Part shown: piece by piece, positions 23,975-63,699 of the stretch | How the letters are laid out: every line of letters starts with the position of its first letter | Position numbering within the stretch: position 1 is the stretch's first letter | Virus record (IMG/VR): IMGVR_UViG_3300045988_120248 | Coordinates: 32,001-96,000 of that record | Length of the DNA stretch: 64,000 nucleotides | DNA from: a virus | Reading direction: 5' to 3' (one strand) | Notes under the pieces: generated by a model | Told to the model about the DNA's origin: nothing | Database searches by the model: none | Seen by the model: only the letters and a program-made list of their open reading frames with translations | Position numbers and translations under genes: made by a program

Positions 23975-23987
23975 GCAATGAAACACT

Positions 23988-24040
23988 GGGGATAGGGTAG
24001 CTCCTGAAAAGCGGTTCCCTTACCGCCTTCCCCTGTTTTT
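23988..24040 (+). terminator. Possible intrinsic terminator after the portal gene
   Basis: GGGGATAGGG (23988-23997) pairs imperfectly with CCTTACCGCCTTCCCC (24018-24033), followed by TGTTTTT. Confidence 0.35.
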
Positions 24041-24073
24041 CAATAAGGGAATTACTGAAGGGAGTAATTGAAC

Positions 24074-31997: not shown

Positions 31998-33317
31998 ATG
32001 CCGCTCTCGGACAATATCAAAAACGGCCTGATTGCTTCCGGCCGCCTGAAAACAGCAATCAGAAATGCACCTGCGCAATATGGTGACCGGCAGAGGCAGT
32101 ACCTTGGAGATCCCAGCACAGAGTTTGTTCATCAATATGCAAAGTATGCAACGGATTTCATAAAAGCACGTGTGCAGGGCCTGAACCAAGATGCTCCATA
32201 TGAATGGGAAACCACATATATTCGTATGGCGGACATAGCGCCTGAGACTGCCTCCACGCTTCGGAAACAGGATGATTACAAGAGCGTCATGTTTGCGGAT
32301 GAAAGCATTGAATATGTGCCAGAAGGTACAAAAATTGATGCAATGGGCAGTATTTGGCTGGTCACAAATCCACAGAACATATCCAATGCTGTTGGCGGCG
32401 GCGTGATACAGAGGTGTAGGTCGACTTGGAATCATCTGGACTGGTACGGCAATCTCCTAAAAGAGCCGATTTGCGTCGAGAAGGCGATCTTAACTGCAAA
32501 CGAAAGTGATATGCAGGAATATGCGCTTATCACGAAGGGCTATGTCAACATTACGTGCCAGCGTAACGAAGAAACGAAAAAACTGAACACAAACAGCAGA
32601 ATCATCTTGGGGTCTGCGGCATACCACATTACCGGTTTCGGCGATTACGCGCAGGAATTTACCGGAGATTATGAATCAGTCCGGCTGCTTGAATTCACGG
32701 CTAGATATGAACCACCAAACGAAGAAATTGACGACATGGAAAACCATGTGGCAGGCGGAAAGACGTTTTCGTGGGAAATCCGAGTAAGCGGGAACCCTAT
32801 TATAAAAAGCGGCGCTACGGGCCAGTTGGAGGCCATCAGCCTTAGAATGGGCGAGAAAGCAGACAGCGACTATGACCATCCGATCAGCTACATATGGGAG
32901 AGCAGCGACAGCAATATTGCGGATGTTGGCATGGACGGAAGCATTTTTGGCGTTTCAGAAGGGACTTGCACTGTGACTTGCACATTGGAACAGAACCGCA
33001 GCATCAGCGAGACATATGAAATAACGGTCGTTCCGGCGGAAAGCGGAAACGAAGTGGCGTTCCTCGGAAATATCCCGGACAAGATTCGCCCGTATGAGTC
33101 TGTTACGCTGGATGCAGCTTACTTCGAAAACGGCGAAGAACGGCTGGACAAAATAACGTTCTCTTATTCAGGTGCGGATATAATGTCGTATACTGCGACG
33201 GAAGCAGGGAACAGCACGCAAATTACTTGCTGGTCTGCAAGCGATGCGCCGTTGAAGGTAACAGCGTCGTTTGGAGAATATGCAGCAAGCGTAGAAATCG
33301 GCTTGGAGGGCATTTGA
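31998..33317 (+). CDS. Structural protein with C-terminal Ig-like domains
   Basis: ISYIWESSDSNIADVGMDGSIFGVSEGTCTVTCTL and a second similar repeat. Confidence 0.5.
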   Translation: MPLSDNIKNGLIASGRLKTAIRNAPAQYGDRQRQYLGDPSTEFVHQYAKYATDFIKARVQGLNQDAPYEWETTYIRMADIAPETASTLRKQDDYKSVMFADESIEYVPEGTKIDAMGSIWLVTNPQNISNAVGGGVIQRCRSTWNHLDWYGNLLKEPICVEKAILTANESDMQEYALITKGYVNITCQRNEETKKLNTNSRIILGSAAYHITGFGDYAQEFTGDYESVRLLEFTARYEPPNEEIDDMENHVAGGKTFSWEIRVSGNPIIKSGATGQLEAISLRMGEKADSDYDHPISYIWESSDSNIADVGMDGSIFGVSEGTCTVTCTLEQNRSISETYEITVVPAESGNEVAFLGNIPDKIRPYESVTLDAAYFENGEERLDKITFSYSGADIMSYTATEAGNSTQITCWSASDAPLKVTASFGEYAASVEIGLEGI

Positions 33318-59158: not shown

Positions 59159-60247
59159 TTATATACCCCTCATTTCCCGCACATTCTGTGCCACGATTTT
59201 TACTGCGTCATCAATGATTTTGATATCTCGTTCGAGGTTCAGCCCGTAGTTATTGCCCATATCATTTGCATTCGGGTCGAGTTTGTAATCGAAGCTGAAC
59301 CGGATGGCCGACCGGGCGCGTTCCTCAGAATACCCCGAAGCGAGAAGCACACGGGATGGCGCGTTATCACCGCTGGAACACGCTGCGCCGGATGAAACCA
59401 TCAGACCGTCAGCCGAAAGCCGCAGGACGAGCGCATGGTTCTCAATTCCGGGGAAAGAAATGTTTGCGATATATGGAGACTGTCCAAACTGATGGCCAAA
59501 GCATTCCAAACCGTTTAGCTGCGCATCTGGTAGTTCATTCATAATACCATCGATCAAGTGGTTATGCAACACCCTCGTTGTTTCTGCGAACCAGTCCAGA
59601 TGATTTGTGCGGAATTCCAATGCGACAACAAACGCAGCGGCAAGCGGAGCGGATGGCGTTGCAAAATGGAAGTTCTCTGTGACTTCATCCGGATTTCGTG
59701 CAATTAACACACCGATTCCAATCGGAGCACCGAATTTATGACCCGCGCCGCATATGAAATCTATTCCGCTTTCACGGAAATTGATTTCCTGTTTCCCCAT
59801 GGCTGCGGTGCAGTCGGAGAATGTCAAGTCATACCCCGCAAAAGCGCTTTTCAAATCATAAATTTCACCGGTTTCGTTGTTTGTGTGGATATGAGATATA
59901 CCGCGCAGTTTGTTTCCAATACGGCTTATTGGCATCATGCGGTCTGTAATGCTTGTCACTGCTGCGTGCTCCGCACTGCTCGCAGAAATACCCTTGCATT
60001 TGTCATTCATAATCGTGAGCGCAATCCTGCACGCTTCCGTTGCGGACGAAACGAAGAAAACTTGGTCCGGCTCACAGCCCAAGCACAGCGCTACGCCCTT
60101 GCGGGATGCTTCAAATGCCTTTCTGGTAGCTTGCCCAAAGGAATGTATAGAATTCGGGTTCCCCCATACCGGCACCTGCGCCCCTACGAATGTTCCCATC
60201 GCGCCCTTAAGCGGGGGAGAAGTAGCCGCGTAATCCAAGTAAATCAT
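59159..60247 (-). CDS. Class V aminotransferase / cysteine desulfurase (NifS/IscS-like), short form
   Basis: MIYLDYAATSPP N-terminus, PLP-lysine block GAGHKFGAPIGIG and catalytic-loop SSGAACSSG. Confidence 0.75.
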   Translation of the reverse strand: MIYLDYAATSPPLKGAMGTFVGAQVPVWGNPNSIHSFGQATRKAFEASRKGVALCLGCEPDQVFFVSSATEACRIALTIMNDKCKGISASSAEHAAVTSITDRMMPISRIGNKLRGISHIHTNNETGEIYDLKSAFAGYDLTFSDCTAAMGKQEINFRESGIDFICGAGHKFGAPIGIGVLIARNPDEVTENFHFATPSAPLAAAFVVALEFRTNHLDWFAETTRVLHNHLIDGIMNELPDAQLNGLECFGHQFGQSPYIANISFPGIENHALVLRLSADGLMVSSGAACSSGDNAPSRVLLASGYSEERARSAIRFSFDYKLDPNANDMGNNYGLNLERDIKIIDDAVKIVAQNVREMRGI

Positions 60248-60789
60248 GCGCCCAACTCAACCTCCTTCGGCCAACGCGGCAACGCAGCGGCACAGATTTT
60301 TTCGTAAATTTCTTTCTGTGCAAGCAGCGTATCGCGTTCCTTCTGAATCACACGATATGCGTCTTCTAATCCGAATGGCTCGTTGAGTGGAACACGGATC
60401 TTTTCTGACTCTGACGCTTGAGAGGCAGTTACAATGCCAGTAGGGGGGGCGTTAAGCCCCAAGGAGACGATAACCGCTTGGTCAACAAGTTTCATTTCAT
60501 CGGATGTCAACGTGCAATAGTAGTTCTCCAGACGATCCTTATCGACCGTGTAGATTGCTTCGCAAAGCGCGGTCGACTGCTTGCCCATCGTATCAATGGA
60601 AACGTGCGTGGGCATTGGCTTTTTCTCGGCAGTCGTGAGATAAACAATCTCTACAGTGCCGGAATATGTATTGTTTTTTTCATTACTGACAATAATCGCG
60701 GGGCGATTCTTTTTTTGCTCGGAACCGACAGCAGCATAGTCCTGACGAACCCAGAAAATGTCGCCCCGATGGATTCTTATATCCTGCAT
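60244..60789 (-). CDS. MazF/PemK-family endoribonuclease toxin with a C-terminal extension of about 65 aa
   Basis: IHRGDIFWV...VGSEQKKNRPAIIVSN...PTHVSI...AIYTVDKDRL...SDEMKLVDQAVIVSLGL parallels B. subtilis EndoA/MazF block by block. The stop overlaps the next start by 4 nt. Confidence 0.8.
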   Translation of the reverse strand: MQDIRIHRGDIFWVRQDYAAVGSEQKKNRPAIIVSNEKNNTYSGTVEIVYLTTAEKKPMPTHVSIDTMGKQSTALCEAIYTVDKDRLENYYCTLTSDEMKLVDQAVIVSLGLNAPPTGIVTASQASESEKIRVPLNEPFGLEDAYRVIQKERDTLLAQKEIYEKICAAALPRWPKEVELGA

Positions 60790-60846: not shown

Positions 60847-61122
60847 TTACTTTGCAACTGCGTTTTTCAGAATGCTGCTCGGCGAGAATTTGACCGAAAA
60901 ACGGGCTGGAACCTTGATGTTTTCACCGGTCTTCGGGTTCCGCGCATCTCTGGCCTTCTGGTACTTCGCAGCAAACTTGCCGAAGCCAGCGATAGAGACA
61001 TCTTCATGCGAAATGAGGGATTCTCCAATCGCTTCAAACACGGCATCGATGGCTTCCTGGCTGGCGGTCTTCGGCATATTAGTCTTGCTGGCAACTGCCT
61101 GAACGAGTTCTTCTTTGTTCAT
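60847..61122 (-). CDS. hup: HU-family DNA-binding protein
   Basis: MNKEELVQAVASKT...AIDAVFEAI...ISIAGFGKF...RNPKTGENIKVPA. The hairpin GGGGCTTCACAGCCCC follows the stop. Confidence 0.9.
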   Translation of the reverse strand: MNKEELVQAVASKTNMPKTASQEAIDAVFEAIGESLISHEDVSIAGFGKFAAKYQKARDARNPKTGENIKVPARFSVKFSPSSILKNAVAK

Positions 61123-61149: not shown

Positions 61150-61225
61150 TGGTGGGCCGTCTCGGAGTCGAACCGAGATTTTACCAGTTATGAGCTGGTC
61201 GCTCTAGCCTTTGAGATAACGGCCC
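61150..61225 (-). tRNA. tRNA with CAU anticodon (elongator Met or Ile2/lysidine type), CCA encoded
   Basis: Hand-folded. Acceptor GGGCCGU/ACGGCCC; anticodon arm ACCAG-CUCAUAA-CUGGU; T arm CUCGG-UUCGACU-CCGAG; ACCA end. The D stem is weak (3 bp), and no initiator features are present. Confidence 0.8.
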
Positions 61226-62009
61226 ATCTATAACCGGCTTGACGTACCGGCCGTGAGGTCTTGCGCGCAGACCAACGGCAAATTCAGGCGGTTGCACACC
61301 GGCGCTTGTGTGTCAACAGTCCTTAAAGCGTCCCCAAAGGTGCTGCCTAGTTTGGCGGATTTCAGTTCGCCCAAAGCGTTACGAAATTGTGCGGATTCAT
61401 CCGGTTCGACCACTAGTGAGTCTTTCCCGGCAAGCTGAACGGAACTTTCCAAAATGGACTTGTGCCGTCTCTACGAAGGTCTATATCCGCTTGACCTTTA
61501 CCTTTTCGGACCGAAACGCGCAAACGGCTTTTACTGCGCTGTCGGCACAAGTGTTACCTTGCCCCGGTGGGTTTTCACCACTATATTCTGTTAGTTTCGG
61601 TAGCCCACGCATCAAGCGTAGGGGATATGATGGCTGTTCATCAAACTCCATTTAACTCAGTCAAGCACCAACCTCCAACTTATTGGCCAATGCTTATCTG
61701 CTGCACCATCATTTTTTGAGCGATTAGGTACAAGCAATCGCTCGAACTTGGCTTCTTGGGTTCTCCCCGTCGTTGGACGGGCGGATTTGCCATCTCCGGA
61801 AAGGCTTCCGCATTGCCATTGCAGCGTAGCCATTATCCCGCTTTCGACCCATATAGCTGCATTTTGCCTCGTTCTCCTTGGACGCTGTGGGTCAGCGTCT
61901 TTAGCCGGTGGCGCTACGCTCCACGATCACGCTATTGCGTGCGTGAATGGATAGCTGTATGATTCCCACCATGTTAATTTGTCGCGCGGAGAACCCCAAC
62001 GGGCGGCTA
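61226..62009 (-). ncRNA. Candidate large structured non-coding RNA filling the gap between two tRNAs (identity unknown)
   Basis: 784 nt with no convincing ORF on either strand, abutting a same-strand tRNA at each end. It holds several perfect local stems. Strand is inferred from the tRNAs. Confidence 0.3.
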
Positions 62010-62086
62010 TGGCAGGGGTAGCAGGATTTGAACCTACGAATATGGGAGTCAAAGTCCCATGCCTTAGACCGCTTGGCGATACCCCT
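62010..62086 (-). tRNA. tRNA-Gln (UUG), CCA encoded
   Basis: Hand-folded. Acceptor AGGGGUA/UACCCCU; anticodon arm UGGGA-CUUUGAC-UCCCA; T arm GUAGG-UUCAAAU-CCUGC; GCCA end. Confidence 0.8.
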
Positions 62087-62239
62087 TTGTTGCCGGCCTT
62101 TCCCGGCTGTCAGAGTGCTTACATTCCCGAAGAACTCGTCCGTGGTATCGGCTATATCAACCCGACGACACCGCTGCCAGATGCGGAGGTTTCATTCCAA
62201 CTACGGTTTAACGAGTAACAACCTCGTATGTTGGTGGGC

Positions 62240-62269
62240 ATGGTGGATGCGGCGAGGATTTGAACCCCG
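62240..62269 (-). other. Orphan tRNA 3' half (T arm + acceptor strand + CCA) without a 5' partner
   Basis: The minus strand reads GCGGGGUUCAAAUCCUCGC-CGCAUCC-A-CCA. No GGAUGCG-type 5' strand or cloverleaf lies within 100 nt upstream. It may be an old att-site remnant. Confidence 0.3.
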
Positions 62270-62308
62270 CACGGTGCAGGCAGTATGCGACGAGCTTTGT
62301 TCCCGTCC

Positions 62309-62490
62309 GAGGTGGCTGCTTCAACCCCATTGACACTTCCCGTGGAAAAACAGGGGATTCTCGGTTCAGCGACCGTTGCGCCGTAGTTGCGTCTTACATG
62401 GTCTCCACGAGCGTATAGGTTCGGGCGTGTCCCGCCCTACCGTATGTTTAGGCTAGGCCAGTAGGCGCATTCCTTCGTGCAAAATGTTCT
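62309..62490 (-). ncRNA. Predicted omega-RNA of TnpB-2 (scaffold 62329-about 62490, guide 62309-62328)
   Basis: Homologous to the copy-1 scaffold. The right end finishes GTGTCAA (TCAA = 62329-62332 on the minus strand). The guide would be UGGGGUUGAAGCAGCCACCU. Confidence 0.45.
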
Positions 62491-63699
62491 TCGCGGCATT
62501 TACATCCCGGTCATGGTGTGTCCCACATTCAGGGCACGTCCATTCCCGTACCGCCAGATTCCTTGTTCCGGTATTCCGATACCCGCAGCAGGAACATAGC
62601 TGGCTGGACGGGAAGAACCGGTCTATCGCTATGACTTTCTTTCCATACCACGCGGCCTTGTACTCTAACTGCCGTCTGAACTCGCCCCATGCTGCGTCAC
62701 TGATGGACTTCGCAAGGTGATGGTTCTTGACCATGTTCCTCGGTGCTAAGTCTTCGATACAGATCACATCATTTTCCCGGATGAGCTGCGTTGACAGCTT
62801 GTGCATTATGTCCCCACGCTGGTTTGCGATATGCTCATTCAGCCGTGCCACCTGAATCCTTGCTTTTTCGCGCCGGTTGCTCCCCTTTGATTTTCGGGAG
62901 AGCTGCCGTTGCAATCGGGCAAGTTTCTTCTGGTTCTTGGCTAGATAACGTGGATTTGGATATTCTATTCCATCGGACGTGATTGCAAACGCTTTCAATC
63001 CCATATCAACGCCGATCACAGCGCCGGTCTTCGGCAGCGGCTCAATCTCCACGTCGGTACAGCAGAGCGATACGAAGTATTTTCCACTAGGATTTTTGGA
63101 TATCGTGGCAGACAGAATTCGGCCTTTGACTTCTTTTGAAACCCGACATTTGACACGCCCCAGTTTCGGAAGCTGGACGGCATCTTCAAAAACTTTTATA
63201 CCGCCTTTTGATTTATAACTCTGTCTATGCTCACGTTTGCTCTTAAATCGCGGAAATCCGGGTGGCATTCCATTCTTGACGCGGCGAAAAAAATTCTGAT
63301 ATGCGTCATCCAAATCCTTCAGCGATGATTGGAGCGCTGTAGAATCGGCCACTCGAAGCCACGGAAGAAACTTTTTTAGTTGCGTCATATCCGCGGAACA
63401 TTCACAATAGTTCATCATCTTGGAATCTTGTTCATATGCGTTTTGCCTCATTCTGAGATAGTAATTCCAAATGAACCGACAGCATCCGAATATCTGTTGA
63501 ATCAGACAGGTTTGGGAATACGAAGGATATATTCGGAATTTATAACTGTACTCCATTATCTCTCCTTGCATATTTTTTATGATTTCCATGGAAACGTGTG
63601 TCACGCTTTCCTGCACCGCATACCCTTGCTGCCTTTTCCATTCGGCCACACATCCGTATGTTTCTATTCGTTGTTGCTTTTGGGCACTAGGTACATTGC
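62329..63699 (-). mobile_element. Second TnpA-less IS200/IS605-family element
   Basis: TTAC (63703-63700, minus strand) flanks the inferred left end and TCAA closes the right end. Length is 1371 nt against 1370 nt for copy 1 under the same boundary rule. Confidence 0.55.
62453..63556 (-). CDS. tnpB: TnpB RNA-guided nuclease, second copy
   Basis: I place the start at ATG 63556 ([15 protein letters not shown], with AAGGAGAG upstream). The C-terminal two thirds are nearly identical to copy 1, with the same RuvC and zinc-finger blocks. Confidence 0.9.

Follow-up and report, generated by a model that had tools for sequence, protein, structure and literature searches.

A modular structured RNA between two tRNA genes of human-gut phages as a candidate new family of large phage RNAs

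Introduction

Beyond ribosomal RNA, RNase P RNA, transfer-messenger RNA (tmRNA) and introns, very few large structured RNAs are, to our knowledge, known in bacteria and phages. A 784-nt interval between two transfer RNA (tRNA) genes in a 64,000-nt stretch of phage DNA (IMG/VR record IMGVR_UViG_3300045988_120248, positions 32,001 to 96,000; the whole stretch is hereafter called the window) probably represents one more. The interval is read here, with a probability of roughly 0.6, as a minus-strand phage non-coding RNA of a new family that is part of a tRNA island, is released by tRNA processing and associates with itself. Comparison with related gut phages shows a conserved and strand-specific predicted RNA with four autonomous, heavily base-paired domains (A to D) and pseudoknots in C and D. 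The same comparison shows that these domains have been shuffled, expanded or lost among the relatives. The most suitable place for the RNA is a family of its own among the large ornate RNAs of phage tRNA islands, outside ROOL and GOLLD.

The original prediction had proposed a large structured RNA between the two tRNAs, and this core claim is borne out by the relatives, with the RNA in the sense of the tRNAs and in a phage tRNA island. Both flanking minus-strand tRNAs, named there as a tRNA-Gln reaching 62010 and a tRNA-Met starting at 61225, are recognised by ARAGORN and by Rfam. Window coordinates are used throughout and the RNA is read on the minus strand.

62010-62086 (-): tRNA-Gln (UUG), CCA encoded; ARAGORN, Rfam tRNA model 62.1 bits
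61226-62009 (-): inter-tRNA structured RNA, whole, 784 nt; supported by homology, no Rfam match
61150-61225 (-): tRNA-Met (CAU); ARAGORN, Rfam tRNA model 57.1 bits

Homologues in related phages

Relatives were retrieved from IMG/VR and metagenomes by means of the PemK protein, DNA motifs of the RNA, the 3' end of tRNA-Gln and HU homologues. About 60 contigs of related human-gut phages were recovered, nearly all of which have a homologous element in the space from tRNA-Gln to tRNA-Met. Homology extends to each of the 27 loci that IMG/VR yielded at first and to more contigs from ENA, JGI and Logan. tRNA-Gln stands upstream of the element in nearly all relatives, and tRNA-Met follows it in every one. 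The element occurs once per genome; an nhmmer search of the rest of the window and of all loci gave no further copy.

Searches outside this group were negative. A blastn comparison with the cultured phages of INPHARED gave no match to the element, and a scan of GTDB species genomes for its 5' motif gave 0 matches, so that neither a prophage copy nor a host was found in this way. A pattern scan aimed at divergent members brought up about 11 chance loci (L198-L207, L209), which nhmmer rejected.

Domain architecture

The helices fall into four domains, which are listed below from the 5' end of the RNA together with a segment present only in the window.

61819-62007 (-): domain A, the 5' domain; 32 pairs in the alignment
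61988-61994 with 61871-61877 (-): P1 of domain A, GUUCUCC with GGAGAAC; invariant 7 bp, GGAGAAC partner in all members
61966-70 with 61907-11 (-): Pa of domain A
61949-55 with 61913-19 (-): Pb of domain A
61881-61899 (-): P5 hairpin of domain A; covaries
61850-60 with 61819-27 (-): P6 of domain A
61714-61818 (-): expansion segment, 105 nt, window only; absent from every homologue
61506-61713 (-): domain B
61703-13 with 61625-34 (-): P7 of domain B, AUGAUGGUGC with GCCAUCAU; apical part hypervariable
61604-24 (-): P8 hairpin of domain B
61594-600 with 61511-17 (-): P9 of domain B, CCGAAAC with GUUUCGG
61391-61501 (-): domain C, a pseudoknotted three-way junction
61476-61498 (-): hC1 hairpin of domain C
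61485-90 with 61391-96 (-): pseudoknot PK1 of domain C, GCGGAU with AUCCGC
61408-61422 (-): hC5 hairpin of domain C; palindromic loop ACUAGU at 61412-61417
61226-61390 (-): domain D, the 3' domain
about 61350-61386 (-): S1/S2 pseudoknot of domain D
61312-61347 (-): D-P2 and D-P3 hairpin of domain D
61287-61300 (-): GGUG/CRCC hairpin of domain D
61257-61273 (-): hairpin of domain D; palindromic loop GCGCGC at 61263-61268
61234-61250 (-): terminal CCGG hairpin of domain D

P1 encloses Pa, Pb and P5, and P6 comes after it; Pa and Pb are kept across three divergent alleles of the inner hairpin of domain A. In domain B, the apical part of P7 has at least seven unrelated alleles, one of them with an inserted open reading frame (ORF), and P9 encloses an optional insert of about 68-76 nt (61518-93 here) that some relatives have and others lack. 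PK1 pairs the hC1 loop with the 3' end of domain C and thereby encloses two arms, hC2/hC3 and hC4/hC5. In domain D, a second pseudoknot (PK2) probably forms between the D-P3 loop and a downstream AAGCG.

The expansion segment folds locally into three hairpins and contains a second copy of CCGCCCGU...GGAGAACCC, which could compete for the 5' strand of P1. Its source was sought elsewhere in the window and in every locus, and no match was found. This segment bears directly on the pairings that the original prediction had named, all of which exist in the sequence. The 7-bp stem 61881-61887/61893-61899 is helix P5, which is conserved and covaries in relatives. However, the 8-bp stem 61718-61725/61736-61743 is private to the window, and so are the partner 61758-61766 of the 9-bp pairing with 61988-61996 and the second copy of ACGGGCGG (61777-61784, the other being at 61999-62006), because all three lie inside the 105-nt insertion. 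The conserved partner of GUUCUCC is instead GGAGAAC. The pairing of the two ends, UAGCCG with CGGUUA, is present in the window but is not conserved in relatives. The interval had also been called G+C-rich, which a content of 52.4% against 49.7% for the whole window does not support.

Evidence for a conserved RNA structure

Helices were drawn domain by domain, because chance and linkage dominated an exhaustive search for stacked pairs. The pairs were then counted on alignments, with 500 shuffles as controls. RNAalifold on full-length MAFFT alignments was set aside, as it gave doubtful long-range pairs. Folding of single sequences is not decisive, with z-scores of -2.4 to +0.1 overall. The minimum free energy of the window's own interval gives z = -2.4 for the minus strand and z = -1.0 for the plus strand; a single sequence proves little, and the caution of the original prediction that helices of this size arise by chance was well placed.

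The covariation analysis that it had proposed as a check gives a clearer answer. In domains C and D together (alignment A4), 96.3% of the cells of 61 pairs are paired and 11 pairs have changed on both sides, where the shuffles give 2.8±1.3 (0/500 reach 11). Sliding the partners by 1-3 columns leaves 1-4 such pairs. In domain A, 96.3% of the cells of its 32 pairs are likewise paired, and 7 pairs have changed on both sides against 3.7±1.0 in shuffles (1/500 reach 7). As MAFFT misaligned some of the divergent alleles, both numbers are on the conservative side. Overall, at least 18 helix pairs show compensatory changes.

Individual helices illustrate these changes. hC1 occurs as AAGGUC/GACCUU, as AAGAUC/GAUCUU (L186) and as AAGACC/GGUCUU (L194). 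PK1 is GCGGAU/AUCCGC in most members, and both of its strands are replaced at the same positions by GUGUC/GACAC in L194, L208 and L210. Pairing is also maintained with different sequences in divergent members for hC2, hC3, hC4, hC5, S1, D-P2 and D-P3, and the extension of P7 covaries (UA/CG 14:8, AU/GC 12:10).

The proposed helices contain 149 G·U cells and 20 A·C cells, and this excess indicates that the folded strand is the minus strand, which is the sense of the tRNAs. Furthermore, the mean identity of domain C to relatives is 96.8%, compared with 87% for HU, 84% for PemK and 76% for the aminotransferase. Taken as generic marks of a structured non-coding RNA, compensatory changes above controls, strand-specific G·U pairs and the lack of a conserved ORF are all present.

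These results bear on the view that the interval is a non-functional or DNA-level sequence, such as decayed remnants of tRNAs or insertion sequences (IS) or a recombination or protein-binding region, conserved through recent ancestry. Helices kept by compensatory change despite sequence change do not fit this view, nor does a strong bias of G·U over A·C, which is the signature of a single strand (RNA). Domain C is more conserved than the flanking genes, and the interval has no similarity to tRNAs or to the TnpB element, although the element is dispensable and highly mosaic and TnpB insertion sequences are active in the same island, as the view would expect. Such an origin is considered unlikely.

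A hidden small protein-coding gene is extremely improbable. As the original prediction had noted, the interval has no credible ORF. The longest is a GTG-start frame of 115 aa at 61308-61655 on the plus strand, next to one of 74 aa on the minus strand, and these ORFs would be the substance of the idea; neither has a Pfam match. In relatives the ORFs are broken or different, indels are not multiples of three and break reading frames, and no ORF is conserved, so that the conserved small-protein gene which would have spoken against an RNA was not found. A mini-ORF after an AAGGAG motif was also considered and dropped, as its ATG is not conserved. One relative, L004, really has a gene for a 73-aa MqsA-like zinc-ribbon protein inserted in the P7 loop, but this insertion is absent from the window. 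The ORF (about 4790-5160 in L004; Pfam PF15731, E = 1.6e-5, below the curated cut-off) lies in the P7 apical loop with an AT-rich promoter-like sequence and an AGGAGG ribosome-binding site. Its position there indicates that the site tolerates large insertions.

Length variants, domain shuffling and losses

The element ranges from 359 to 981 nt among relatives, as follows.

359 nt: L023, L076, L078
441 nt: L015
553 nt: L056 group
615-725 nt: most members
784 nt: window
981 nt: L004, with the inserted 73-aa MqsA-like zinc-ribbon gene

Much of this variation comes in whole domains. Domain B is absent in L023, which combines A with D, and partly absent in L056. L194 has C and D without A or B, and in L210 domain B is split and reordered, with the P9-insert module placed before P7. 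L194, L208 and L210 carry divergent or rearranged versions of the element without tRNA-Gln. The order A-B-C-D is nonetheless retained in nearly all members, and the alleles of the domains assort freely among relatives.

Some relatives delete the element, and it is therefore clearly accessory. In L215, a contig of 34,849 bp, only 48 nt are left between tRNA-Gln and tRNA-Met (2851-2898); this remnant consists of the first ~27 nt fused to the last ~21 nt at a common GCGCG motif, and the HU of this phage is 86% identical. The L215 HU protein (P0004) is found on 7 contigs, the longest of about 121 kb, of which only L215 was examined. L082 and L083 retain only the last 74 nt of the element.

Such modularity lends itself to the main rival explanation, in which the interval is a tandem of independent small structured RNAs or processing elements (A, B, C, D and a 74-nt tRNA-Met leader) that are co-transcribed with the tRNAs and each work or are degraded alone. 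The varied combinations of domains (L023, L194, L082/L083, L210), the free assortment of their alleles and the failure to find an inter-domain helix with covariation all favour it. Nevertheless, no tRNA-like punctuation, promoter or terminator separates the domains, the whole spacer is the default product of tRNA processing, and the A-B-C-D order persists in nearly all members; moreover, domains that may be absent and linkers that vary are features of GOLLD and ROOL too. The tandem of small RNAs is thus a serious but rather doubtful competitor of the single RNA.

Palindromic loops and self-association

Two hairpin loops suggest how copies of the RNA may meet. The hC5 loop has 7 nt, a C followed by a 6-nt palindrome, in three otherwise unrelated alleles. 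It reads C-ACUAGU in 27 of 33 sequences including the window, C-GUGCAC in L056 and L085, and C-GCGCGC in L194, L208 and L210. In the hairpin 61257-61273 of domain D, the stem covaries as GGUCU/AGACC or GGUUU/AAACC (C-G 13, U-A 15), and the loop is a palindrome followed by A, namely GCGCGC-A in 27 sequences and GUGCAC-A in 7. A random hexamer is palindromic in 1 of 64 cases.

Since the palindromes switch and yet stay palindromes, copies of the RNA would pair with each other by way of one loop or of both. A change from one palindrome to another, seen here in two loops, is what marks symmetric kissing loops, and the RNA therefore probably self-associates, as far as its loop sequences tell. The same argument has been used for symmetric intermolecular kissing loops in OLE (L9.3) and GOLLD (L21a) (PMC12286853). 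With two self-complementary interfaces, closed oligomers or chains would be possible. A pairing of a 5' CGCGCG with the 3' palindromic loop was discarded, as it is not maintained when the loop is GUGCAC.

The palindromes are also relevant to the DNA-level view, under which they would be restriction-type sites or sites of dimeric proteins. ACTAGT, GTGCAC and GCGCGC are indeed typical type II restriction sites as well, but loops as asymmetric as C + palindrome and palindrome + A, together with G·U pairs in the stems, are ill-suited to a site in duplex DNA.

A bolder proposal goes beyond self-association and is only tentatively put forward. The RNA might represent a new class, a self-assembling modular phage RNA scaffold of Oscillospiraceae-type gut phages, in which domains are exchanged like cassettes and two kissing loops (in C and D) drive closed homo-oligomers (rings or cages) or filaments. 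With its tRNA-punctuated processing, it would be a third and evolutionarily independent solution beside ROOL and GOLLD.

Proposed mechanism and points against it

The RNA would be transcribed from the minus strand within a polycistronic tRNA-island transcript. Counts of promoter-like and terminator-like sites in the interval are at chance level, and co-transcription with the tRNAs is probable because the RNA has no such signals of its own. tRNA-Gln is the presumed 5' boundary and 3'-processing signal, and tRNA-Met would be the 3' boundary. In this tRNA punctuation, the RNA would be freed upstream by tRNA-Gln 3' processing and downstream by an RNase P cut at the 5' end of tRNA-Met, which would set its 3' end. 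The loops C-ACUAGU of domain C and GCGCGC-A of domain D would then form symmetric kissing contacts from copy to copy, and the outcome would be a dimer or a larger homo-oligomer of the kind known from GOLLD, ROOL and OLE. Speculatively, a particle of RNA alone or of RNA and protein could act in trans during infection and would be accessory, not essential. By analogy with ROOL and GOLLD, such a particle may be abundant during infection.

Several points weigh against this reading. The RNA is a prediction from sequence comparison, and the helices were drawn from the same sequences on which they were later counted. The diversity of the relatives is modest and mosaic, and many of the 'events' are allele swaps. 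The element is dispensable, as the 48-nt remnant of L215 and the 74-nt remnants of L082 and L083 attest. No covarying helix joins the domains and their alleles assort freely, and for this reason a single functional unit is only presumed. As for the loops, three sequences are off the hC5 palindrome by one base, each palindrome switch may be a single event, and the domain D loop could pair instead with an upstream GUGYGCA, since the same substitutions would be allowed through G·U.

Comparison with known RNAs and systems

Rfam release 15, run on the window at the gathering threshold and then on the region of the interval at E up to 10 with relaxed filters, gave no match inside the interval. No match at E up to 10 was obtained for ROOL, GOLLD, OLE, HEARO, group I/II introns, RNase P RNA, tmRNA or 6S. 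With relaxed filters and E up to 5-10, the homologues in L016, L083 and L210 gave only tRNAs and chance matches. The Rfam comparison recommended by the original prediction was thus negative, but the conserved homologues it had asked about do exist among relatives. For tmRNA, ARAGORN also finds only the two tRNAs; an intron of a tRNA is excluded because both flanking tRNAs are intact. The literature yielded no description of the inter-tRNA RNA family, the 8,495 short phage motifs of PMC10690425 not having been compared by sequence.

The suggested likeness to ROOL and GOLLD stands in context and style and fails as to membership, as no covariance model matches. GOLLD (RF01998) is also very large (about 800 nt), belongs to phages and prophages, typically lies in tRNA islands and was first seen beside tRNA-Met (PMC12286853). 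It likewise combines one conserved and one variable part, and its linker accepts insertions (PMC12286853). Its hairpin loops switch palindromes and form kissing loops in a homo-oligomer (PMC12286853); in the RNA described here, oligomerisation is only deduced. A tRNA island and covarying palindromic loops were both found in the present case, and these are shared properties, not proof of homology. The RF01998 model, which captures the universally conserved 3' region of GOLLD, has no match. Since the covariance models match nowhere, the window RNA is unrelated to GOLLD in sequence and in helix pattern. Unlike GOLLD, the inter-tRNA RNA is confined, so far as searched, to one human-gut phage group, and it gains and loses whole domains.

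ROOL (RF03087) is about 580 nt long and occurs in phages and prophages, in gut and rumen Firmicutes and near tRNAs (PMC12286853, PMC5737381). Multistem junctions and pseudoknots belong to its fold, its linker is not conserved, no protein partner of it is known, and it assembles into a nanocage by means of kissing loops (PMC12286853, PMC5737381). The window is similar in being of phage origin, with portal protein, structural proteins, an endolysin and a methyltransferase, and in having the RNA directly between two tRNAs. In contrast, ROOL is found in three phyla and the inter-tRNA RNA has a narrow distribution. The RF03087 model is unmatched in the window, L016, L083 and L210. A highly divergent ROOL or GOLLD member missed by the Rfam models is very unlikely: size, phage origin, tRNA island, optional domains, variable linker and palindromic kissing-type loops would agree with it, but neither the window nor the same three relatives match RF03087, RF01998 or any other large-RNA model, even with relaxed filters and E up to 5-10.

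Three further systems offer likenesses. In the dimerisation initiation site of HIV-1, a hairpin presents in its loop a 6-nt palindrome with unpaired bases on either side; natural variants of this palindrome in subtypes B and A are GCGCGC and GUGCAC. The inter-tRNA RNA has the same two palindromes, which is an analogy of mechanism only and not homology; unlike the HIV-1 site, it stands in a DNA phage and has two such loops per molecule. In mitochondrial transcripts and in the mascRNA of MALAT1, RNA ends are set by RNase P or RNase Z at tRNAs or tRNA-like structures. The flanking tRNAs and a nearby tRNA-like element (62241-62329) recall this arrangement, whereas the setting here is bacterial or phage and the processing is predicted only. 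Lastly, a tnpB gene 370 nt upstream on the same strand recalls the omega RNA of TnpB. That identity was rejected, as tRNA-Gln separates the RNA from tnpB, there is no sequence similarity, and the two do not co-occur: L016, L001 and further relatives have the RNA but lack the IS at this site.

A type III toxin-antitoxin (ToxI-like) RNA antitoxin for the PemK/MazF-like protein was rejected as well. No tandem repeats are seen, tRNA-Met and HU intervene, and PemK homologues occur without the RNA in L072, L081, L082, L083 and L215.

Locus and phage context

On the minus strand, the gene order is TnpB, ~370 nt of non-coding sequence, tRNA-Gln, the 784-nt interval, tRNA-Met, HU, a PemK/MazF-like gene and a class-V aminotransferase-like gene.

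62453-63556 (-): TnpB ORF with HTH_OrfB, OrfB_IS605 and Cas12f1-like TNB domains
60847-61122 (-): HU gene
60244-60789 (-): PemK/MazF-like gene
59159-60247 (-): class-V aminotransferase-like gene

The TnpB element (~62330-63595, minus strand) is a TnpB-only insertion of the IS200/IS605 type in the spacer from tRNA-Pro to tRNA-Gln. It is missing at the same site in many relatives (e.g. L016), in which the flanking sequence is kept, and other relatives have related TnpB copies elsewhere in the same tRNA island. The 123 nt past the tnpB stop codon (62330-62452) should be the scaffold of TnpB's omega RNA. The nearest genomic relatives of the element are 72-75% identical and belong to Oscillospiraceae (Pseudoflavonifractor, Oscillibacter, Pelethomonas), which is a weak hint, drawn from sequence likeness, at Oscillospiraceae as the host. 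One of the related contigs bears the label human gut metagenome.

Between the TnpB element and tRNA-Gln lie two further conserved pieces on the minus strand. The first is an 89-nt tRNA-like element (62241-62329), 94-96% conserved among relatives, in which a T-arm and a 3' acceptor strand can be recognised and CCA is encoded. It receives no ARAGORN call and has only weak matches to the mascRNA and tRNA-Sec models; a degenerate tRNA and a processing signal are both conceivable. The spacer of L210 has similar tRNA-like 3' halves with CCA (about 690-755 and 488-518); this non-coding spacer of 1309 nt is headed by an ARAGORN tRNA-Asn with the unusual anticodon AUU (86-156). The second is a 54-nt block (62146-62199), 98-100% identical in most relatives and joined directly upstream of domain C in L194 and L208.

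The window's tRNA-Gln is 97.5% identical to that of most relatives and its tRNA-Met only ~75%. This tRNA-Met is a different, swapped-in allele of a 76-nt type also called in L056, L082, L083, L186, L194 and L210. The PemK/MazF toxin domain carries a C-terminal extension of ~70 aa, and the stop codon of the gene overlaps the start of the class-V aminotransferase-like gene. HU lies upstream of it, and no separate antitoxin gene is evident. Elsewhere in the window, an int-alpA RNA (RF02996) is found at 23985-24049 on the plus strand (52 bits, above the gathering threshold), just past a portal-like gene.

Significance

GOLLD, ROOL and OLE have recently been shown to assemble, from RNA alone, into cages or dimers, and what they do is not yet known. 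The inter-tRNA RNA is a dispensable element of narrow distribution, and its family is predicted from sequence. It does come with natural domain-deletion and allele-swap variants of 359, 441, 553, 616 and 784 nt and with a 48-nt null form. Narrow as its distribution is and predicted as its self-assembly remains, the RNA is a plausible third example of a self-assembling phage RNA. An independent family with the same tRNA-island habit and the same kind of loop palindromes would point to self-assembling RNAs as a recurrent strategy of phages rather than a pair of isolated cases.

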